Shown piece after piece: positions 40,415 through 50,310 of a stretch of 64,000 bases of DNA. How positions within the stretch are numbered: the first letter of the stretch is position 1; every line of letters begins with the position of its first letter. The notes beneath the pieces are model-generated. The model did no database searches, was not told the DNA's origin, and worked only from the letters and a program-made list of their open reading frames with translations. Made by a program: the position numbers and the translations under genes. The DNA is from Escherichia phage PhaxI. The stretch lies in sequence record JN673056; one strand, 5' to 3'.

Positions 40415-40948
40415 TTACAAAGACTTGTCAGAAACGGCTTGGAAATAACGCAAGTCGACAGTGAACTGTGTGTAAGAGTCCATTGCCGACATATCGAGTT
40501 CCAGTTGGCCGAGGTTTTGAGGCCAGCCGCCCTGTAAAGTCCATGTCTTAGTCACGTTGTCATTCGCGTCCAGAAGTTCCATGATGATATCACGGAAATA
40601 ATCATCTGGATTCGCGCTGGCGCGGTTGTTTTCACTACCGTTGATGAATTGCTGCCACACTTCAAAAGCATTGTATGGAGCGTTGTTCACCACGTTAATG
40701 AACGTCACAGGAAGCGCTTCGAAACGACGATCCCCTGGGAACGGAAGTTCACGTCCACCCCAGGGCACCAGAATTTCGCCCAGCTGACCTGTTGGGGTGT
40801 TGGTGGTTACAGCCAGCAAGGACACGTCACGAATTGTGTCGGAACCAGCAACAAAAGAAGGAAAGTTTACAGTCACACGCCAGCGGTGTTGGCGTTGTAC
40901 GCCGCCCCCTCGTGACATGGCTGCGCGAAACTCATTGACTGTCGCCAT
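40415..40948 (-). CDS. tail tube protein (T4 gp19-like)
   Basis: Synteny between gp18 and gp20; C-terminal LQGGWPQNLGQLELD resembles T4 gp19 IKGLWPTNVGELQLDW. Confidence 0.65.
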   Translation of the reverse strand: MATVNEFRAAMSRGGGVQRQHRWRVTVNFPSFVAGSDTIRDVSLLAVTTNTPTGQLGEILVPWGGRELPFPGDRRFEALPVTFINVVNNAPYNAFEVWQQFINGSENNRASANPDDYFRDIIMELLDANDNVTKTWTLQGGWPQNLGQLELDMSAMDSYTQFTVDLRYFQAVSDKSL

Positions 40949-40978: not shown

Positions 40979-41437
40979 CTAATTAGTCGTCAATCTTTTA
41001 ATCTTCATGGAAGAAAAATCAAATCCGTGGTCAACATTGCTTAAAACGGGTTCTATTTCACACAATTCCCAACGGGGATCTATGAGAGAAACAAGACCAA
41101 TGTGTTCACCTGTGGATGTCAATTTTGCTGCAGTTTTACCCAGCATATGACTTCCATCATTACCGCCTTTATTCATGTTGTAACCCATCTCATAAGAATT
41201 ATATTGAGCGATGAGTTGCTTCTCTAATTCCCATTTATGGACTTCATCGGTCTGAGCAATTACAACGAAAGTAAATCCAGATGTTCCATACTTACGCATG
41301 GCATCATACAATTCACTTTGGACTCCATGATGAAAAGCATTCGCAAAATGCTGATCATATCTTCGTTGTGGGTTATTGGTTACACCGATGTAGACCTTTC
41401 CATTAGTTATCGTTTCAATTTTGTATGCGTATATCAT
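40979..41437 (-). CDS. GIY-YIG homing endonuclease
   Basis: MIYAYKIETITNGKVYIGVTNNPQRRYDQHF is a canonical GIY-YIG motif with the conserved Arg; inserted between gp19 and gp18. Confidence 0.7.
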   Translation of the reverse strand: MIYAYKIETITNGKVYIGVTNNPQRRYDQHFANAFHHGVQSELYDAMRKYGTSGFTFVVIAQTDEVHKWELEKQLIAQYNSYEMGYNMNKGGNDGSHMLGKTAAKLTSTGEHIGLVSLIDPRWELCEIEPVLSNVDHGFDFSSMKIKRLTTN

Positions 41438-41504
41438 TTCAAATTCACCTCTATTTTATTTAGTGTTGAACAATTTCGGGGTATTATGCTCTTGGAGGTG
41501 TTAT

Positions 41505-42293
41505 ATGATCGGTCATATCTACATGTTAACCGTCGGTAAAAAGAAGTATATCGGACAAACTAGAAACGGCGTTGAGTATCGAGTAAATGAACATTTGGGT
41601 GAAGCAAGAAGAGGGAATAAAACTATCCTCTACAACTATATCCGAAAGTATGGAATTACCAGCCAAGAAATATTGCTAGAATGCCATGTCGATGACCTAA
41701 ACTCTAACGAAATTGAACTCATAAAATTGCATAAGACTCATATCTCTGAAGGTGGGCTGAATATCAGCCGTGGCGGTCAGATAGACATATCTGGTATGGC
41801 CGCAGCATATGATATAGAAAGCAGGGAATTCATCGGAATGAAACCAGTTAATGATGCTGGTTGGAATGTTTTGTTTGTGGCAAAACAATACGGTTTAGTA
41901 CATAAAGAAGAAAGTAAAACAAAAATGTCCCAATCCCAAGCGGTCGTGTGGACAGAAGAAAAGAAAGAATTGCAATCCCGGCGAATTACAAAGGCATACG
42001 AGAATCCAAAATGTAAAGAAAATCTTCGTATCGCTATGAACAAAGTGCGTATGAATCCTGAATTTCAAGAGAAAATAAATCGATCTCTCGGGAGATGGTT
42101 TACACTTCTTTCACCAGCTGGTGAAGAATATGAAATCAAGAATCTAAACAAATTTTGTCAAGAACAATGTTTGTGTATAGAATCTTTCAACATGGCATTA
42201 GCTGGAAGGATGCAGAATCCCATCCCTAAACCTTACAGGAAATCTTCATTGAAGAGAACAAATACCACAGGATGGCATATCAGTAGGAAATAA
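41505..42293 (+). CDS. GIY-YIG homing endonuclease (Seg-like), plus-strand
   Basis: ATG 41505 with SD GGAGGTG; HIYMLTVGKKKYIGQTRNGVEYRVNEH canonical GIY-YIG; divergent from adjacent minus-strand GIY-YIG gene. Confidence 0.7.
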   Translation: MIGHIYMLTVGKKKYIGQTRNGVEYRVNEHLGEARRGNKTILYNYIRKYGITSQEILLECHVDDLNSNEIELIKLHKTHISEGGLNISRGGQIDISGMAAAYDIESREFIGMKPVNDAGWNVLFVAKQYGLVHKEESKTKMSQSQAVVWTEEKKELQSRRITKAYENPKCKENLRIAMNKVRMNPEFQEKINRSLGRWFTLLSPAGEEYEIKNLNKFCQEQCLCIESFNMALAGRMQNPIPKPYRKSSLKRTNTTGWHISRK

Positions 42294-42320: not shown

Positions 42321-44216
42321 TTAGGATGCAGCAACGATGCCGCCGCCTGATTCGATCTCGGAGAATTCCATATCTGGTCGAACTGCAGCAAAATCCAAAT
42401 ATACCCAATTAATGCTGTACTCAGGCTTCAACCAAATGCCTGCAACCATGGTGTTGGCTGCGATAACATCAGCAGTGTTGTTATCTTCGTCACACTTGAC
42501 TTTACCATCGTAGATCGCACCCATATTTGCCAGTTGGCGAATATAAGGACGAACAGCGTTGCTGAACAGGCTGCGAGTGAACGCATCATTGTTCTCACCA
42601 AGGTAATATTTGGCGATTGCAGCGATGTTCTGTTCTGCCATAATGAACAAGCCACGAACATTGATACGATCGAAAGCAGACGGACGAGTCAGGCCAGTTT
42701 TGTCACCATACAACACGATACCTTCATTGGAGAAGGTTACGATGCTGTTAATCTGGTTGCGGTACAACACGGCACGTTCATCGGAAGACGCAGACCACGC
42801 CATTCGATTGTAGTTGTTGTATTTGCCACGGTTGTGGAACGCAGGAGATTTGTAGATACCCGCGATTTCAATGCTTCGCGCCCAAACACCTGCGGTGCCA
42901 CCACAAGCCGGAATCCAACGCATTTTGTCGTTGTACTTGTCGTACACATATGCCCAGTTATCATCCATGAAGAAATAAGAAGAGTCGCGAACAAGGCTTT
43001 CACGCCAAGCAACGACATCATCCATTTCACGACCACGGTTGCCAACAACCGTATCACGGAGCGGGGATACGAAAGATACCGTATCTTTTCGCTCAGTAGA
43101 TAAGTCGATCAATGCTTGTTGCTCAATCAGTTCTTCACAGTACGCAAATACTGGCTTCGCATCATATGCTTCAGCATTGTTCAAGACTTGGATAGCTGCC
43201 ACGCGGTTGATGTTATAATCGTCTACGCCGCCTTCTAATTCAACAACACCTGCGGACAGAGCGGTAGCGAAGGTGTACACCCAATTTGATGTATCATTGA
43301 TGACATCTTTGAAGTACGCATTCGCGCCATCGGACTTTTTGGAACCCTGTGTGTTCTGCATGAGTTCGTATTTTTCGATAATAGAACCAGATGCGCCAAC
43401 AGTGGTAATCACGGCGGTTGCAGTCAGCCCCTTATCATCTGGAACAATAGCAGTAACTGTCTGGGGACCAATAGCTTTATGGGTCACGATGACAGTGTTG
43501 GACTTCACGACAACAGAAGAATAAACACTTGTCAGGGAAGTTAGTGCTGTACCGATTTTGGTTGCCAAATCGGCTGGAGTATCAGTATCCAGATATGCGA
43601 TATCTTCACCTGCCACACTGATGGTGCCAGCAGCAGTAGCCGTACCAGAAACGGAGATACGGTCAACCTGACCGACCGCGCCAGCAGAGTCGGTAATGCG
43701 ACCAACTTTGTCTACGACAACTACATGGAATTCACCAGACTGAGGTGCGTATGCAAAGTTATTACGGAATTCCCAAGTTGAGAATCCAGCAGCATCACAA
43801 ACATTGATAGCAATATCATTACCCAGGGAACCTGGATAACGACCAGTCCAAGTGATGGACGCCGAAGGACTTGCTGTTTCAAAATCCAGTTTGTTTTTGA
43901 TCGCAATCGCTGTCTGACCTTTGGTAACAGAGTTCTTGGCCAGAGGACCAACAACACGGGTCACCCATGCCATAGAGCTGTAAGACAAAAAGTCCGCGAT
44001 TACGAGAAAATCGGTCGCAGTACTGTCGTTGGGTTTGAAGAATTTCTTCACCAAACCTGTCTCACCACCAGTCACCAGCACTGGAAGTTCAACTTCACCC
44101 CATTGAAATTTGCCGACGGTCGCGCCCTGAACAACAACGGACGGGGACGTCTGAAGCGTGGCATCACGCTCAGTCCACTGAACGGACGGCGCAACGCTGA
44201 AGCTTTGAGTTGCCAT
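42321..44216 (-). CDS. tail sheath protein (T4 gp18-like)
   Basis: N-terminus MATQSF..GKFQWGEVELP matches T4 gp18 GKFQWGPAFQ; start set to ATG 44214-44216 with SD AAGGAA (track starts at TTG 44249). Confidence 0.85.
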   Translation of the reverse strand: MATQSFSVAPSVQWTERDATLQTSPSVVVQGATVGKFQWGEVELPVLVTGGETGLVKKFFKPNDSTATDFLVIADFLSYSSMAWVTRVVGPLAKNSVTKGQTAIAIKNKLDFETASPSASITWTGRYPGSLGNDIAINVCDAAGFSTWEFRNNFAYAPQSGEFHVVVVDKVGRITDSAGAVGQVDRISVSGTATAAGTISVAGEDIAYLDTDTPADLATKIGTALTSLTSVYSSVVVKSNTVIVTHKAIGPQTVTAIVPDDKGLTATAVITTVGASGSIIEKYELMQNTQGSKKSDGANAYFKDVINDTSNWVYTFATALSAGVVELEGGVDDYNINRVAAIQVLNNAEAYDAKPVFAYCEELIEQQALIDLSTERKDTVSFVSPLRDTVVGNRGREMDDVVAWRESLVRDSSYFFMDDNWAYVYDKYNDKMRWIPACGGTAGVWARSIEIAGIYKSPAFHNRGKYNNYNRMAWSASSDERAVLYRNQINSIVTFSNEGIVLYGDKTGLTRPSAFDRINVRGLFIMAEQNIAAIAKYYLGENNDAFTRSLFSNAVRPYIRQLANMGAIYDGKVKCDEDNNTADVIAANTMVAGIWLKPEYSINWVYLDFAAVRPDMEFSEIESGGGIVAAS

Positions 44217-44258
44217 AATATCATTCCTTCTCGGTAGAGTTTCGCTCAATTTGAAAGA

Positions 44259-44268: not shown

Positions 44269-46479
44269 TCAATTCTTAAACCACTCATCCATGGTCATCC
44301 CTGACATTTCGTTGAAAACTTGAATACCCCCGAAACCAGGCAAATGCTCAGTTTCGGATGGGGTGTCTCCAACGACTAAACCGCCAAATGGGAATACCTG
44401 CTGGGATTCAGTTGAAGACATTCGGTTTCTCATGTCCTGAGAAATACTTGTAGATGTCAAGTCACTGAACCATTCTTGTTTTACCGCCCATGAATATAAG
44501 ACCAACGGCATGACACAGTCATCGTGACAACCGTCATCGGCTTCATACCGAGCGCCTTTGAACACAAATGTACTGAGTTCATCTATCGTGTCCTGGTCTT
44601 CTATCACCAACATTTCTTTCTCAATGAGCGCTTTCAGGTTAGCACAACCGATAGATCGGACTTTTCTGTTGGTATTGATACCAGGTTCCGGTTTACGTCC
44701 ACCAATCCGTTTCCCCGTCCCTTTGTTATCTGTTGATGTGAATATGATTTCTGGATATTCTATCTCTTGATAAAGAATTGTAATAACCTGACCGCCGACG
44801 TCGTTGTTTGTTTCAACAAGGACAGGACATTCCCCGTATTCGGTGCACATATCAGCTATCGTGTATGCATACATCATAGGAGGTATCGTATTATTCCTGT
44901 ACTTGGCTGCTATGACATGCGGATATTCAGTTATATCCAGAATTGTTAAGACGGAATAATCTCCTTCCACCCCCTTCCCAGTGTCCGCAATCCCAAAGTA
45001 GAGACGTTGTGGGTCGTATTCCTTATAAATCTTGGTGAATTCATTAGGTTCCCGATACAACTTGGACGTCATTTTATCTAAGCATTTGGCCGGAATCAAT
45101 GAACCCACGGAACCACGGAACTTAATGCCAAATTCTTGATCGAAACGAGCATCCCCCAGACGGGCACGTTGTTTGGTTTCCCAATCTGGATCTTTGGTAT
45201 ATGCCGGAACCTTATACCATGGGACTTCAGTTAGGTGGAAGTCGTTGTATGGTGGATGGCGTGGATCTGCTTTGGTGACAATATCATAGAACAACCCTCG
45301 CTGGCCTTTCGGAGTACTTGTCAAAATACAGCGTGATGTATCGGCAGATGCAATGGCTGGGAAAGTTGATTCCCAAAATTCAAAGTCGTTTTCGATAAAC
45401 GCGACTTCGTCAACATACAGGAGCGATCGACGACCACGGATGGAGTTCCGAAGACTCGTGGCATAAGCGTATATCTTAGAACCATTCTCAAACTCTATCA
45501 GGGTAGAACCAAACTTCTCACAACCCTGCTGAAGGAAGAATGGAAGGTCTTGGTATGCCTTTCTGATACGGTCAAGAATTTCTATCGCTTGTTTCTCTTT
45601 GTTTGCCAGTACTGCGATTTCCTTATCAGAATGGAACATCGCGTACCAAAGAAGAAACGCCGCCACCACGGTCGTGTTATGACTGAGAAAGCCATTCGTG
45701 TAATAACGTTGATCACTAGATTTGACCTGCAGATCGTACATATGGTGATATTCACCAGTCTGCCAAATCTCACGGATTTCTTCTGGACCTTCGGTCGTCA
45801 TGATGTATGACCCAGCATTCAGGTCTTTGGCAAATATCTCCTTCATGTCCGGAGTGAAGAACATATGTTCATCGGCCACGTTAATTCGCCTTCCGGTAAC
45901 GGTGACAATAACGAATTCCGCATATTTCTTCGTCTTATGCGCTGCGATAACCGGAACCCAGCCACTATCGGATTGTACAAAGTAACGTTTGCCGAAGCGG
46001 CTGTCCACGAACTTGTCATGGTTGCCAATGGTATTCAGCGGCACAGCGTGGTTGACGTCCTCGAAGCGGCTGTGAAGCTCCCCTATAGTCAGGAGCAACT
46101 CCTCTTGGCTGAGAGTATCGTAAACTGTGACAAGCGTGTCGCCTTTTACACATTTTCCGGACTGACGAGCCTGGACGACCGCATTAAATCGATAGTCCTG
46201 AAAGTCGTGGAACAACTGCTTCTGATAATCATGCATATCGAAAAGGATAAAGCCCTTATCGATCGTGGTTATCTTGTAATAGTTGGCGGCGAAGTAGTGT
46301 GCATCCATAGAACATTCAACGAATTCGTCTTCTTGTTCATCTGTCAGCATTAACTCGACTCGAGGAGCACGCACAGAAAGTTTGCGCATGAACGTTTGGT
46401 CCATACGCAATTTTACATCGTCTATTTTGAACCCCGTTTTAATTGGGGCATATTCTATATCACGCTTCTGATACGCCAT
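44269..46479 (-). CDS. terminase large subunit (T4 gp17-like) interrupted by a mini-intein
   Basis: C-terminal nuclease/ATPase blocks (LLYVDEVAFIENDFEFW, ILTSTPKGQRGLFYDI) match remembered T4 gp17; Walker A ARQSGK is separated from its TTVVAAFL continuation by a 159-aa insert. Confidence 0.9.
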   Translation of the reverse strand: MAYQKRDIEYAPIKTGFKIDDVKLRMDQTFMRKLSVRAPRVELMLTDEQEDEFVECSMDAHYFAANYYKITTIDKGFILFDMHDYQKQLFHDFQDYRFNAVVQARQSGKCVKGDTLVTVYDTLSQEELLLTIGELHSRFEDVNHAVPLNTIGNHDKFVDSRFGKRYFVQSDSGWVPVIAAHKTKKYAEFVIVTVTGRRINVADEHMFFTPDMKEIFAKDLNAGSYIMTTEGPEEIREIWQTGEYHHMYDLQVKSSDQRYYTNGFLSHNTTVVAAFLLWYAMFHSDKEIAVLANKEKQAIEILDRIRKAYQDLPFFLQQGCEKFGSTLIEFENGSKIYAYATSLRNSIRGRRSLLYVDEVAFIENDFEFWESTFPAIASADTSRCILTSTPKGQRGLFYDIVTKADPRHPPYNDFHLTEVPWYKVPAYTKDPDWETKQRARLGDARFDQEFGIKFRGSVGSLIPAKCLDKMTSKLYREPNEFTKIYKEYDPQRLYFGIADTGKGVEGDYSVLTILDITEYPHVIAAKYRNNTIPPMMYAYTIADMCTEYGECPVLVETNNDVGGQVITILYQEIEYPEIIFTSTDNKGTGKRIGGRKPEPGINTNRKVRSIGCANLKALIEKEMLVIEDQDTIDELSTFVFKGARYEADDGCHDDCVMPLVLYSWAVKQEWFSDLTSTSISQDMRNRMSSTESQQVFPFGGLVVGDTPSETEHLPGFGGIQVFNEMSGMTMDEWFKN
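45676..46152 (-). mobile_element. mini-intein (Hint domain only, 159 aa) inserted in the terminase Walker A P-loop
   Basis: Insert begins Cys (CVKGDTLV, block A), contains VYDLQV...NGFLSHN ending in His-Asn, and is followed by Thr (+1 nucleophile) that completes QSGK-T of the P-loop; no homing endonuclease domain. Confidence 0.75.
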
Positions 46480-47140
46480 CGTCTTCTTCCTTCACATCAA
46501 CTGTTTCACCATCAATGATTTCATCTTCTGGTTGTTGTGCGGCCTTTGCTTGTGCTCTTTCTTCAGCGCGACGGCGGGCATCTTCAATCGTCTTCAATAA
46601 ATCGCGAGAAGATCGCGCCTTTTTCCCAACCGATACTGTTGTTGTTCCGTCTGGTGAAGTTGTAACATCCACTGTCGTGTCATCAACAGGTGGTTCTTTA
46701 TCACCTGTTACTGCCTTGATGGTTTTCTGGTTTTCCATCAAGTCTTTATTCAGACCGCGCATGAGTTCACCCAATTCACGGAAAACAGAAAATGCTCGCG
46801 GAGCTTCTGTGGATGCAGCCAATTTAGCGGCTTGTCCCATCATGAACATTGTGGCTTCTTGCATAGCATATGTTGTGTCGCGTATCCGTTTGTAATCCGT
46901 TGTAGCATCAGTGTCCGCAAACTCAGGTACTTTGGATTCCTTGGAAGCAATATCCTCCAATGAAGGCGGTTCAGGAATCGGCTGATACCCTTCCGGACGT
47001 TCACCAAACCATTCACCTGTATTTTCATCGAAGTCAATACCTGGACGAGGGGCGACAGCCTCCATCGCCTCCTTCCCGACTTCGTCTCGGGCAGTCACTG
47101 CATCAAGCGTGGCGAGTAACCTTTCTGACATATTGCTCAT
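46460..47140 (-). CDS. terminase small subunit (gp16 position)
   Basis: Directly upstream of and overlapping terminase large subunit; acidic C-terminus; start set to ATG 47138-47140 with SD GGAGG. Confidence 0.6.
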   Translation of the reverse strand: MSNMSERLLATLDAVTARDEVGKEAMEAVAPRPGIDFDENTGEWFGERPEGYQPIPEPPSLEDIASKESKVPEFADTDATTDYKRIRDTTYAMQEATMFMMGQAAKLAASTEAPRAFSVFRELGELMRGLNKDLMENQKTIKAVTGDKEPPVDDTTVDVTTSPDGTTTVSVGKKARSSRDLLKTIEDARRRAEERAQAKAAQQPEDEIIDGETVDVKEEDDGVSEA

Positions 47141-47142
47141 GA

Positions 47143-47841
47143 TCAATCCTCCGGATGATGTATGCCGTCTTTATCAACTCGGAACCACTCAGGAAGTTCC
47201 GACCATGGCATGTTCAAATCATTAGACATTTCAATAATTATCTCTTTGATGACGTTTGGGTCCCCACCGCCCGAACCATCATCAACCCAATAATCTTCTC
47301 CATAGATGTGACCATGTAATTGAAAATTGAATGAACAATCTATGTGTGGTGATTCTGTTGCGTCTCCTTCCCAGTTGTCAGAAATCGTGTGATTTACCAA
47401 CATTATCTTCACGTTCTGATCTTGAGATAGCGTATCCGTGTCTTTTATCTGACAATCAATAGAAGGAGTGAACACAGAATAAATTTGTTCTAATACTTGC
47501 AACATTTCGACCAATTTTTTAGTTCTGATATTGTATTCAAAATCTATAATGATCGGAATGCGTTGTTTGGACCGTGCCGTAGCGGTCGATATTTGGTTGT
47601 GGTATGACTTCGTCACCTGTTTATTGATTTCGAACTGACCAAAGGACATTGTTGCAAATGGCAGCATATTGGCTGGCACGTTCCTGTTGAGGTCATTACG
47701 GCGGCCAATGGCCATATGCAGCGGGATTTCCATCAAGCCACGTTCGGTTTTGACTTTTAAATCTGACATGATAGCGTTGAACACATGTATGTATTTCAAC
47801 AATGATTCATGATAGAAATATTTTTCAAATGGTCTGGCCAT
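47143..47841 (-). CDS. tail sheath stabiliser/completion protein (T4 gp15-like)
   Basis: N-terminus YFYHESLLKYIHVFNAIMSDLKVK resembles T4 gp15 YFYNSSFRRYATLMGDLFSNIQIK; synteny. Confidence 0.65.
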   Translation of the reverse strand: MARPFEKYFYHESLLKYIHVFNAIMSDLKVKTERGLMEIPLHMAIGRRNDLNRNVPANMLPFATMSFGQFEINKQVTKSYHNQISTATARSKQRIPIIIDFEYNIRTKKLVEMLQVLEQIYSVFTPSIDCQIKDTDTLSQDQNVKIMLVNHTISDNWEGDATESPHIDCSFNFQLHGHIYGEDYWVDDGSGGGDPNVIKEIIIEMSNDLNMPWSELPEWFRVDKDGIHHPED

Positions 47842-47843
47842 GA

Positions 47844-48485
47844 TTATTCCCCGAAGTCTATCTTCATTTTATTGGGCGAAAGATCTTTCTCTATTTCGTC
47901 CGCAAATTGGTTATCCGTTTGCAGGCTGGCGTCTTTGTACACACCGTCTCCTTCCAGATCCTGCAATCGTTTATCGATATCGTCTATTTCAGATACACCT
48001 GTATCGAAATCTTCGTTACCGTATTGGAACAACGTACATGGTAGGGAATATGTGTACCATTTCCCAAATTGCATGAATTCTTCATCGTTATTCGGGTTAT
48101 TCACTTTAAATATTTTGTTAGCCATAGGCAGATATATCAAATCACCTTCTTGAGGCATTTGTTCAAGGCCTGGACCATTACCAATAACTTCTGAAAAACG
48201 ACGACGAGCAATAGTGAATGTCACTTCATCTTGTAATTGGATACCGCCGAACTTTTCCCACATCTGTGTGTTGAAGCCTTGATAATCCTGCATATAAACT
48301 TCGATGTCAAACGCTTGGTCGAATTTGTGTTCGGCCTCGTTTAAAATTGGGTATTTTTCAACAATAGAACGTGGGATATACTTGACGTCAATCCCACGCA
48401 ATTGTATCATCTCGACCACCAAGTCATCAATTAATTTTTGAGTACCTTGGTGTGAAGTGTAATTAAAGTATCGAGAAGTAGCCAT
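47844..48485 (-). CDS. neck protein (gp14 position)
   Basis: Synteny only (upstream of gp15). Confidence 0.4.
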   Translation of the reverse strand: MATSRYFNYTSHQGTQKLIDDLVVEMIQLRGIDVKYIPRSIVEKYPILNEAEHKFDQAFDIEVYMQDYQGFNTQMWEKFGGIQLQDEVTFTIARRRFSEVIGNGPGLEQMPQEGDLIYLPMANKIFKVNNPNNDEEFMQFGKWYTYSLPCTLFQYGNEDFDTGVSEIDDIDKRLQDLEGDGVYKDASLQTDNQFADEIEKDLSPNKMKIDFGE

Positions 48486-48509
48486 AATATTTTCCTCAAG
48501 ATTTAAATA

Positions 48510-48516
48510 TATTTAG
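48510..48516 (-). promoter_or_regulatory. late-promoter-like motif CTAAATA upstream of gp14-position gene
   Basis: Minus-strand AACTAAATATAT about 25 nt upstream of ATG 48485. Confidence 0.35.
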
Positions 48517-48543
48517 TTGAATTTGTTTTTAAGGTGAATCAAT

Positions 48544-49254
48544 ATGATCGTCCTGACAGAAGGAATTGCTTCTAAAAGAATCAAATCATATGCTTCTTCT
48601 AGAGGTGGAATATTTCACGGATTTGTCGGTGGTAAATTTGTCACCAACCAAACTAAGTGCATTTTGTCTTGCGAATTTGGTCATGAATGGAACTCAGCAA
48701 CTTATGCGAATTTGATAAATAAAGGAAGTTGGTGTCCTTCGTGTCGTGGAAACAAGAAGATCTCAAATGAAGAAGCTAAAATCAGGATATCGGAGTACGC
48801 CGTAAGCAACGGTGGTAAATTCATAAATTTCATTGGCGGGAAGTACAAAGACAACGTGACAATTTGTGTCATGGAATGTTCTGAAACGCACAGGTGGGAA
48901 TCCAGGTACGGTAATTTAGTCAACAGCCGAAGTTGGTGTCCGTATTGCGCAGAATCGGGTTACAATTATTCTAAGGAAGGTTTCTTATATATTCTAGTCA
49001 ACGACGAAGGTTGTATGAAAGTGGGAATAACCAACTCGCCTAAGAAACGTATAAATTGTTTGAGAAGCACCACCCCGTTTTACTTCAACGTTCTAGAAAT
49101 ATTTAATTCAACTGACGGATTATTTGTTTCCAGGTTGGAAAGAATTGCCCATAGAATGTGTAAGAGCGCGGGGTATAAGGATTTTGACGGTGCTACCGAA
49201 TGGTTTGTATACGATGGATCAGTCGTAGATTTTATCAGAAATATTTTGAAGTAG
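48544..49254 (+). CDS. T5orf172/GIY-YIG-superfamily nuclease domain protein with two N-terminal zinc-ribbon repeats, plus-strand
   Basis: C-terminal GFLYILVNDEGCMKVGITNSPKKR...EWF fits the T5orf172 pattern; N-terminus has two about 70-aa repeats each with C..C..H.W...SWCP.C; SD AAGGTG. Confidence 0.55.
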   Translation: MIVLTEGIASKRIKSYASSRGGIFHGFVGGKFVTNQTKCILSCEFGHEWNSATYANLINKGSWCPSCRGNKKISNEEAKIRISEYAVSNGGKFINFIGGKYKDNVTICVMECSETHRWESRYGNLVNSRSWCPYCAESGYNYSKEGFLYILVNDEGCMKVGITNSPKKRINCLRSTTPFYFNVLEIFNSTDGLFVSRLERIAHRMCKSAGYKDFDGATEWFVYDGSVVDFIRNILK

Positions 49255-49316
49255 CCATGACTTTACCTCAATTTTGAAGGTATTTAGTCAATCATTAATT
49301 CTTTTGAGAATGATAA

Positions 49317-49529
49317 ATGATGGTGGAAGATATTAAAGAAACTCGTGACGGAAGGCGTGTGAGAATTATCTGTGTAGACGCTAAATCCGCCGATGGTTCA
49401 TATAACATTGTGGGTCTTATCAAAGACGAAAAGGGAAATGATTTTATTGAATGGTGGGATGAAAAGAACTTGGTTGATGGTTATATTCTAGCAAATTCAA
49501 ATCCTTCCGACCGCGACATCAAGTTATAA
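49317..49529 (+). CDS. small hypothetical protein (70 aa), plus-strand
   Basis: ORF between T5orf172 gene and bidirectional terminator. Confidence 0.35.
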   Translation: MMVEDIKETRDGRRVRIICVDAKSADGSYNIVGLIKDEKGNDFIEWWDEKNLVDGYILANSNPSDRDIKL

Positions 49530-49530
49530 A

Positions 49531-49558
49531 AGAAAGGCGGGATAACCCGCCTTTCTCT
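49531..49558. terminator. bidirectional terminator (AAAGGCGGG-ATAA-CCCGCCTTT)
   Basis: 9-bp stem with T-rich flanks on both strands; separates plus-strand island from gp13. Confidence 0.7.
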
Positions 49559-50310
49559 TATCCCATCATAAAATCGATAGGGTATTGCTGGCCAGTACGC
49601 AATTCTTCCTCCAACCGCTCTATCTCGGTCTCGGCCTCACTGAACATACTATCACCATCCAGTTCGATACCACCAGGGAGACGGATGCCTCTTGCCTTCT
49701 TAAGCACCTCTGCCCAACGGCGCTTGACCAATGCAGTCGCATACGCTTTCAACCACATATCATTCCATGCTTCAGCGTTTTCTTCCGATTCGGGGTCGAT
49801 ATTTTGATAACAACGAAAAGCCAGGGTTTCATCAACAATGGCAGCAAACTGCGGGTAAAGGCGTCGCTGGAACTTCTTGTACACAAAATTACGGCGAACA
49901 TTTAAGACGCTTGTGATATCCGACAGGCGTTGTTGCATGGAAACATAATCAATGAGACGAATAGAAACCAGCGCTGCTTTGGGGACAAGCATTGCTTGAG
50001 CCATTTGCCATTGAGGAGTTGCCCAGTTTCCGATTGACTCAATAGGAGGTCCAGGGATAACTTCAATCACATCGTCAATATCATCGGGAAATTCTATATA
50101 TCCCTTGTCGATATCTTCTTGTTTAACTTGGTACAGGAAGAACGCATCTTGGCTACCATCACGATGATATTCCCAAAATTTCTGCAGAGCATCATCGACT
50201 GCATCTTCGACTTGTGAACTGTCAAGGTTAATTTGGATCACAGGAGCGCCCAATTTACGCAAGACATAATTCATAAAAGATTTTTTGTCTCGAATCTTAT
50301 TGACGGCCAT
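49558..50310 (-). CDS. neck protein (T4 gp13-like)
   Basis: MAVNKIRDKKSFMNYVLRKLGAPVIQINLD matches T4 gp13 N-terminus ([21 protein letters not shown]); start set to ATG 50308-50310 with SD AAGGGG. Confidence 0.7.
   Translation of the reverse strand: MAVNKIRDKKSFMNYVLRKLGAPVIQINLDSSQVEDAVDDALQKFWEYHRDGSQDAFFLYQVKQEDIDKGYIEFPDDIDDVIEVIPGPPIESIGNWATPQWQMAQAMLVPKAALVSIRLIDYVSMQQRLSDITSVLNVRRNFVYKKFQRRLYPQFAAIVDETLAFRCYQNIDPESEENAEAWNDMWLKAYATALVKRRWAEVLKKARGIRLPGGIELDGDSMFSEAETEIERLEEELRTGQQYPIDFMMG

Follow-up and report, generated by a model that had tools for sequence, protein, structure and literature searches.

The zinc fingers of CapR, DUF723 or DUF4397 type, often present in several copies, are a regular part of phage homing endonuclease genes (HEGs) of the T5orf172 kind, being found in 200 of 229 of them; changes in repeat number, domain shuffling and a location near essential genes have also been reported for these HEGs (Barth, Dunham and Seed 2023, PMC10448857). 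The definition of the CapR domain, a DNA-binding zinc finger, goes back to Netter et al. (2021, PMC8096241), who related it to the N-termini of the T5orf172 HEGs of phage ICP1 and showed that its zinc-finger cysteines are required for DNA binding. As regards the nuclease, the T5orf172 protein Odn cuts DNA in vitro and is inactivated by the substitution E180A, the glutamate in question being equivalent to E75 of I-TevI (Barth et al. 2021, PMC8263062). Here we describe a gene for a 236-residue protein in Escherichia phage PhaxI (sequence record JN673056), of which a stretch of 64,000 nucleotides, hereafter the window, was analysed. The gene lies at the start of the neck gene gp14 and is very probably a freestanding HEG of the CapR-zinc-finger/T5orf172 family.

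The genome belongs to the Ackermannviridae, genus Kuttervirus, and over the 3.2 kb around the locus it shares 99.0% identity with Escherichia phage EP75 and Salmonella phage D5lw. The long open reading frames (ORFs) of the window are nearly all on the minus strand; the gene under study is on the plus strand. Public records already label it "endonuclease", "putative GIY-YIG endonuclease" or "CapR homology domain-containing protein", and the copy in phage LIMEstone1 is ORF152, annotated as hypothetical. In the prior literature on homing endonucleases of Viunalikevirus and Ackermannviridae we found nothing beyond general statements that Limestone-type phages are not alike in them, and no analysis of this locus. 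The gene and its domains are as follows.

48544-49254, plus strand: endonuclease-type ORF, 236 residues, ATG start, with an AAGGTGA ribosome-binding site (RBS) 7 nt upstream
48565-48747, plus strand: CapR-type zinc-knuckle module 1, residues ~8-68, ligands C43/H47/C64/C67 (Pfam CapR, conserved columns and repeat alignment)
48769-48951, plus strand: CapR-type zinc-knuckle module 2, residues ~76-136, ligands C112/H116/C132/C135 (best Pfam CapR stretch 78-136)
48979-49236, plus strand: T5orf172/MUG113 nuclease domain, residues 146-231

Domain content and residue conservation

Residues 146-231 match two Pfam families above their cut-offs, MUG113 (PF13455; 3e-9, 37.8 bits, cut-off 22.3) and T5orf172 (PF10544; 1.3e-6, 29.3 bits, cut-off 20), and the 236-residue protein matches PHROG 681 'endonuclease' at 1e-58. 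In an AlphaFold2 model of the protein (mean predicted local distance difference test score, pLDDT, 90.1) the C-terminal domain is predicted to have the GIY-YIG alpha/beta fold. A sequence search of solved structures gave nothing meaningful, the best matches being the RNF4 RING (E 0.11) and cytochrome c-553 (E 0.52).

Conservation was measured with HMMER. The C-terminal domain, compared with 1.84 billion cluster representatives, retrieved 480 relatives at E <= 0.001, and residue frequencies were taken from the best 148 of these 480, the nearest cluster representatives at 50% identity. K159, G161, R169, P178, E199, F214, G216, E219 and W220 are invariant among the 148 representatives and Y149, N164 and H203 at least 90% conserved; the window protein has every one of them. 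The motif residues themselves, namely the Tyr of strand 1 (Y149), the K-[IV]-G of strand 2 (K159, G161), the Arg of helix 1 (R169) and the Glu of T-E-W (E219), are present and 99-100% conserved. On profile, modelled fold and motif together, the protein is assigned to the T5orf172/MUG113 branch of the GIY-YIG superfamily. It is not a canonical GIY-YIG enzyme of the Seg/I-TevI type, with which its kinship is at the level of superfamily and fold only.

The N-terminal part matches the CapR homology domain (PF21817) over two stretches, at 3e-13 and 50.2 bits against a cut-off of 24.2. These are a tandem repeat: residues 9-67 and 77-135 align with 29 identities in 59 positions (49%), and the BLOSUM62 score of the alignment, 158, compares with 25 +/- 5 and a maximum of 47 in 500 shuffles. 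All eight ligands of the C-x3-H...C-x2-C set are present in the two modules and are invariant or at least 90% conserved family-wide, and the additional upstream cysteines, C39 and C108, are not conserved. By analogy, the zinc modules would provide sequence-specific DNA binding.

An earlier note on this DNA had described a C-terminal T5orf172 module of the GIY-YIG superfamily and two tandem repeats, and had proposed a profile search for T5orf172 (PF10544) and zinc families. Both kinds of profile are matched, PF10544 and PF13455 above their cut-offs, and the two tandem Cys/His modules stand, but the first Cys of the motif by which the note had defined them (C39/C108) does not belong to the conserved set. 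The note had further considered the domain architecture to be unusual. That view has to be given up, CapR-type zinc repeats with a C-terminal T5orf172 domain being the normal layout of the family. A Pfam scan of 149 proteins, the window's own and the 148 representatives, found CapR in 82, DUF4379 in 83 and DUF723 in 60, and in nearly all relatives the T5orf172 domain is C-terminal and preceded by 130-400 residues.

Occurrence, empty sites and alleles

The endonuclease gene is found at this site in 46 of the 233-284 related Ackermannviridae phage records that match the locus, and is absent from ~84% of relatives. Searches by tblastn with the window protein as query place 11 of the 46 records at 95% identity or above (ten Kuttervirus and one Agtrevirus, pSal-SNUABM-02). 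A further 15, all Limestonevirus, are 94% identical, and 20 Kuttervirus records are 60-66% identical and carry two other alleles. Empty sites, each retaining a neighbouring 70-residue gene described below, are seen in CBA120 (Kuttervirus), RC-2014 (Limestonevirus) and P46FS4 (Agtrevirus). Compared with CBA120 the window contains a 772-bp insertion between flanks that are 99-100% identical. The placement, which the earlier note had called typical of a freestanding homing endonuclease, is thus matched by sporadic presence and exact empty sites; the synteny comparison at the gp13-gp14 junction that it had suggested finds the gene missing from most relatives and so argues against a structural gene universal at this locus.

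At least four divergent alleles occupy the one site. The allele of SS9 encodes 238 residues; that of Se-J encodes 309, has three zinc modules and is the same as the SS9 allele from the penultimate module onward. A metagenome contig carries a fourth allele at the same locus, with 76% amino acid identity.

One copy departs from the conserved ligand set. In LIMEstone1 (comparison locus L002, 2501-3208) codon 135, which specifies a zinc-ligand Cys in the copies of pSal-SNUABM-02, pertopsoe, GOT and the window, encodes Tyr instead (WCPYY). With this change the gene may be beginning to decay in the lineage of the Dickeya phages.

Insertion junctions at the gp14 start

The insertion affects the 5' end of gp14 and leaves a second, displaced version of it behind.

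47844-48485, minus strand: gp14 neck protein (head closure Hc2), its 5' end being the insertion target (Pfam T4_neck-protein 1.1e-26, PHROG 679 1.7e-74)
48450-48543, minus strand: cassette-borne gp14 5' end, with the first ~12 codons, a GAGGA RBS and the motif CTAAATATA; the endonuclease's own RBS also lies here
49238-49290, minus strand: remnant of the native gp14 start, with ATGGCTACTTCAAAATATTTC, the native RBS and the motif CTAAATACC at 49279-49287; equal to the CBA120 empty site except for a 1-nt deletion

On the minus strand of an empty site the late-promoter-like motif CTAAATACC is followed by GAGGG and then by the gp14 start, ATGGCTACTTCAAAATATTTC, and the 70-residue gene starts 58 nt off on the other strand. 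The stretch comprising gp14 start and late promoter is unusually conserved between genera, 26 of 26 nt being identical in ACCCTCAATTTTGAAGGTATTTAGTC. In the window the late-promoter-like motif upstream of gp14 is CTAAATATA (48508-48516), which lies inside the palindrome TAAATATATTTA (48506-48517); the counterpart of this palindromic element in LIMEstone1 is annotated as a late promoter on both strands. Relative to CBA120, the window's gp14 has ten substitutions within 25 nt (48450-48474), giving K5R and A11S, and is 99.8% identical over the remainder.

This replacement segment is nearly identical in alleles A (that of the window) and B and in the metagenomic allele, across Kuttervirus, Limestonevirus and Agtrevirus, and differs in allele C (Se-J). 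At the other end, the stop codon of the endonuclease gene (49252-49254) falls within the gp14-start remnant, which is of Kuttervirus type in the window and of Aglimvirinae type in LIMEstone1. Since the native remnant is genus-specific and the replacement segment shared, one recombination junction must lie within the ~15-21 nt of gp14 codons 1-7. In alleles B and C the junction with native sequence lies 38 nt farther along, where a TTTTGAAG repeat has its second copy, and the remnant start codon is missing.

The motif, RBS and ATG of the remnant now head a mini-ORF of seven codons (MATSKYF, then stop; 49256-49287, minus strand) that runs antisense into the endonuclease gene. If the remnant promoter fires, it would yield a late antisense RNA over the endonuclease, with read-through towards gp14. 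Among Kuttervirus genomes with allele A each remnant has a small mutation of its own: the window has lost 1 nt, pertopsoe has gained 1 nt and GOT has substitutions. A good match to the sigma-70 promoter consensus, TTGACG-17-TATCAT (10/12), is seen at 48382-48410 on the plus strand, within the gp14 coding region and directed at the plus-strand genes; it could serve early transcription of the endonuclease and 70-residue genes by host RNA polymerase.

Horizontal transfer between genera

Divergence of the cassette and of its flanks was compared as nucleotide identity to the window and as pS, the proportion of synonymous differences from the window copy.

Nucleotide identity, LIMEstone1 and pSal-SNUABM-02 (subfamily Aglimvirinae): cassette 94%; gp13/gp14/gp15 flanks 74-75%
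Nucleotide identity, SS9 and Se-J (same genus): cassette 72% and 65%; flanks 99%
pS across subfamilies (LIMEstone1, pSal-SNUABM-02): HEG 0.22-0.23; gp13 0.78-0.81
pS within the genus (pertopsoe, GOT): HEG 0.08 and 0.02; gp13 0.28 and 0.13; gp15 0.38 and 0.44

The pS of the HEG is far below that of the flanking genes, and the common ancestor of the gene is therefore far more recent than that of the genomes around it. Selection on the protein was rejected as the source of the high identity between genera, the excess similarity being found at synonymous sites. The ratio of nonsynonymous to synonymous differences (pN/pS) in the endonuclease gene is ~0.1, so that the protein is under purifying selection. 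The comparison demonstrates that the gene has moved horizontally between genera of Ackermannviridae while under such selection. The HEGs of SS9 and Se-J, 65-72% identical to the window's at the nucleotide level inside flanks that are 99% identical, mark allelic replacement at the site. The genomes of GOT and pertopsoe remain highly identical to the window for 250-400 bp to the left, within gp14, but identity falls off abruptly just behind the endonuclease gene, a pattern that would fit co-conversion starting from a break close to the gp14 5' end.

Proposed mechanism and alternatives

The view of the gene as a freestanding HEG draws on its domain content, GIY-YIG fold and conserved residues, and on the presence/absence polymorphism, junctions, multiple alleles and cross-genus transfer described above; from these we infer that the protein is an active nuclease, where it would cut and that the gene homes. 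The two N-terminal zinc-knuckle modules would recognise an extended DNA site in the region of the start and late promoter of gp14, and the GIY-YIG-fold domain, with Arg169, Glu219 and Tyr149, would cut a co-infecting Ackermannviridae genome that has the HEG-less allele, at or beside the gp14 5' end. The cut is predicted to fall within or beside gp14 codons ~5-15, which in CBA120 read CAACTATACAGCACATCAAGG. Recombinational repair off the HEG-bearing genome would then copy in a cassette of ~790 bp (~48450-49237) that includes a surrogate gp14 5' end. Since this cassette brings its own promoter-like motif, RBS and first ~12 gp14 codons, the essential neck gene stays expressed, and because the native gp14 start is displaced to the 3' side of the HEG, the putative recognition region is both split and altered.

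A number of points weigh against this reading. Kuttervirus DNA has hypermodified thymidines, with a possible bearing on cutting. Since most of the conserved empty-site sequence is still there in the remnant, sequence alone does not explain how a HEG-bearing genome would be immune to its own enzyme. A Pfam search of the 236-residue protein gave no match to the canonical GIY-YIG profile (PF01541) at E <= 1; the Tyr of the second GIY-YIG motif is replaced by Lys (K159), as is typical of the T5orf172 branch, and the helix-1 His/Tyr appears to be absent, as in Odn. E219, which is invariant and lies between helices 2 and 3, is on these grounds taken as the probable counterpart of E180 in Odn and E75 in I-TevI. 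Finally, the homing of T5orf172 HEGs was stated in 2023 to be experimentally unverified, even in ICP1 (PMC10448857).

The same protein might instead be a domesticated, HEG-derived DNA-binding regulator, comparable to PLE CapR or to I-TevI as an autorepressor, in which the zinc modules bind the divergent promoter and tune expression of the late neck genes or of the gene itself, the nuclease being vestigial or secondary. The CapR domain is indeed proven to bind DNA sequence-specifically and to repress a late operon of a phage (PMC8096241), the gene sits directly on the palindromic promoter-like element TAAATATATTTA, and a pN/pS of ~0.1 shows that the protein does something. Yet a regulator of this kind seems quite improbable given that all invariant residues of the nuclease domain are kept, that the gene is dispensable, being missing in ~84% of relatives with identical neck genes, and that it moves horizontally faster than its flanks and exists as divergent alleles competing for one site, all of which fits an active selfish element. 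A further proposal, by analogy with I-TevI autorepression, is of a dual nuclease and regulator: the cassette would be hard to lose because its own palindromic, possibly bidirectional promoter region stands in for the native gp14 promoter, RBS and first ~12 codons, and the zinc fingers would bind that cassette promoter and couple expression of their own gene to that of gp14. This we regard as unlikely; if true, the site aimed at would be the gp14 start with its late promoter, both of them conserved from genus to genus.

The example of Odn makes it plain that a T5orf172 nuclease can serve as a weapon (PMC8263062), and a cut in an essential late region of a HEG-less co-infecting genome would exclude the markers of that genome as well, so that the gene could be conceived of as a competition or anti-parasite nuclease whose main effect is to destroy HEG-less Ackermannviridae (marker exclusion) or satellite genomes. 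It is, however, very improbable that this is its principal role. The RepA_N domain from which Odn derives its specificity is absent from the 236-residue protein in the Pfam search; the copy-in signature of identical cassette, host-type remnant and empty sites shows the gene itself to have been transferred; and no satellite target is known for these phages, no search for one having been made. Nor is the copy in the window at all likely to be a decaying, inactive relic that persists because it is linked to gp14 and now supplies that gene with a promoter and start codon. HEGs commonly decay after fixation, the LIMEstone1 copy has the zinc-ligand change C135Y, and clean loss of the cassette would require recombination with the remnant, but the copy in the window is of full length and has lost none of its zinc ligands or catalytic-motif residues, its pN/pS of ~0.1 across genera argues against neutral decay, and near-identical copies (pS 0.02-0.08) in Kuttervirus genomes with more divergent flanks indicate recent movement. 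We rate the relic as extremely improbable, and favour the freestanding HEG.

The resident 70-residue gene and neighbouring genes

To the right of the endonuclease gene lies a second plus-strand gene and, beyond it, a terminator and gp13; the genes to the left continue the minus-strand order beyond gp14.

49317-49529, plus strand: resident 70-residue gene, phrog_4466 (PHROG 1.3e-42)
49531-49556, both strands: bidirectional intrinsic-terminator hairpin between the convergent 70-residue gene and gp13 (folding; terminator annotated at the same place in LIMEstone1)
49558-50310, minus strand: gp13 neck protein (head-tail adaptor; PHROG 211 4e-43; annotated gp13 in CBA120 and LIMEstone1)
47143-47841, minus strand: gp15
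46460-47146, minus strand: gp16
44269-46479, minus strand: gp17 large terminase

The mechanical ORF of gp13 extends to 50367; the end at 50310 was adopted as all annotated homologues are of 753 nt. A Pfam Phage_T4_gp13 match for gp13 was obtained in one of the comparison loci (L010). Past gp13 the minus-strand order continues with a gene for 113 residues and then a structural gene for 1612 residues.

Both of the plus-strand ORFs that the earlier note had placed between gp13 and gp14 are present (48544-49254 and 49317-49529, of 236 and 70 residues), but they do not form one island as it had supposed. The 70-residue protein is conserved in all ten loci compared, from three genera, with or without the endonuclease. 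Being kept in genomes that lack the endonuclease gene, the 70-residue gene is resident and lies outside the mobile element; it was accordingly rejected as a component of that element, and the endonuclease gene is an insertion upstream of it. The bidirectional terminator by which the note had bounded the supposed island holds on the right side only, where the hairpin at 49531-49556 folds with a free energy (dG) of -21 kcal/mol on the plus strand and -27 on the minus strand (z-scores -6 and -7.8, no shuffle being as stable); the left side is a divergent promoter/RBS region. A simple terminator scan of 48300-49700 found none, probably because greedy stem extension absorbs the T-run, and direct folding shows the hairpin.

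The 3' end of the 70-residue gene (49450-49550) is ~86% identical to CBA120, SS9 and Se-J in surroundings that are ~100% identical, and the protein changes relative to CBA120 include D36G, L52V, N64D and D67G. This segment may be a small recombination patch.

Other signs of mobile elements and wider significance

The ORF of the gp17 large terminase, of 736 residues, contains an apparent mini-intein in the Walker-A loop (...QARQSGK/CVKGDTLV...GFLSHN/TTVVAAF..., with slashes at the putative splice points). Its Pfam Intein_splicing match (6.9e-7, 29.6 bits) is below the gathering cut-off of 35.8, and Terminase_6N begins only at residue 269. Two more ORFs resembling homing endonucleases lie between the tail tube gene gp19 (40415-40948) and the tail sheath gene gp18 (42321-44249).

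40979-41437, minus strand: homing-endonuclease-like ORF, 152 residues (phrog_5123 'homing endonuclease with GIY-YIG motif', 2e-93)
41421-42293, plus strand: homing-endonuclease-like ORF, 290 residues (phrog_314 'homing endonuclease', 1e-28; Pfam GIY-YIG 0.003, below cut-off)

This region of the genome is rich in HEGs. Just past gp16, Limestonevirus (L002, 1-412) and Agtrevirus (L007, 1-404) have another annotated homing endonuclease (F-LimIX; NUMOD3 protein). No ORF matching its position was found in the window, where gp16 abuts and overlaps gp17.

The gene in itself is routine, having already been labelled in public records, and the layout of its family was described in 2021-2023. Its value is rather as a test system, in culturable phages of E. 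coli and Salmonella with flanks that are ~100% identical and that differ at the gene. The near-isogenic set comprises genomes in which the gene is present (EP75, D5lw, PhaxI-type), absent (CBA120) or represented by another allele (SS9, Se-J), making homing, target immunity and competition between alleles directly testable. The locus also records gene flow among Kuttervirus, Agtrevirus and Limestonevirus phages of different hosts (Salmonella and E. coli as against Dickeya), which bears on DNA exchange among therapeutic and biocontrol phages.

Comparison with known systems

The closest described systems are the ICP1-type T5orf172 HEGs (e.g. ICP1 gp174 and gp165; PMC10448857). They have the same layout, with one to several N-terminal modules of CapR, DUF723 or DUF4379 type and a C-terminal T5orf172 domain, and the same genomic signs, that is variable presence, a site beside or inside essential or structural genes, variation in repeat number and domain shuffling. 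The window gene differs in being found in Ackermannviridae of enterobacteria and Dickeya rather than in Vibrio phages, and, beyond the family's own locus, its protein is only ~30-50% identical to the nearest cluster representatives. Here, moreover, the neighbouring gene has had its promoter and 5' end replaced by the insertion, and synonymous sites allow the transfer between subfamilies to be dated.

Odn (ICP1 gp88; PMC8263062) shares with the window protein a C-terminal T5orf172 domain with conserved Arg and Glu and without the helix-1 His/Tyr, and a separate N-terminal DNA-binding module. In Odn that module is a RepA_N domain and the protein targets a satellite replication origin as an anti-parasite weapon, whereas the window protein has two CapR-type zinc fingers and behaves as the product of a selfish mobile gene. 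PLE CapR (capsid repressor; PMC8096241), the namesake of PF21817, has a homologous zinc-finger domain; the window protein, in contrast, retains an intact nuclease domain and is mobile. Kinship with the T4 Seg proteins and I-TevI is more distant. In these the nuclease is N-terminal, the DNA-binding modules are of NUMOD or helix-turn-helix type and the 'YIG' Tyr is present, whereas in the window protein the order is reversed, with a C-terminal nuclease that has an invariant Lys and does not match PF01541, and DNA binding would fall to CapR zinc knuckles.

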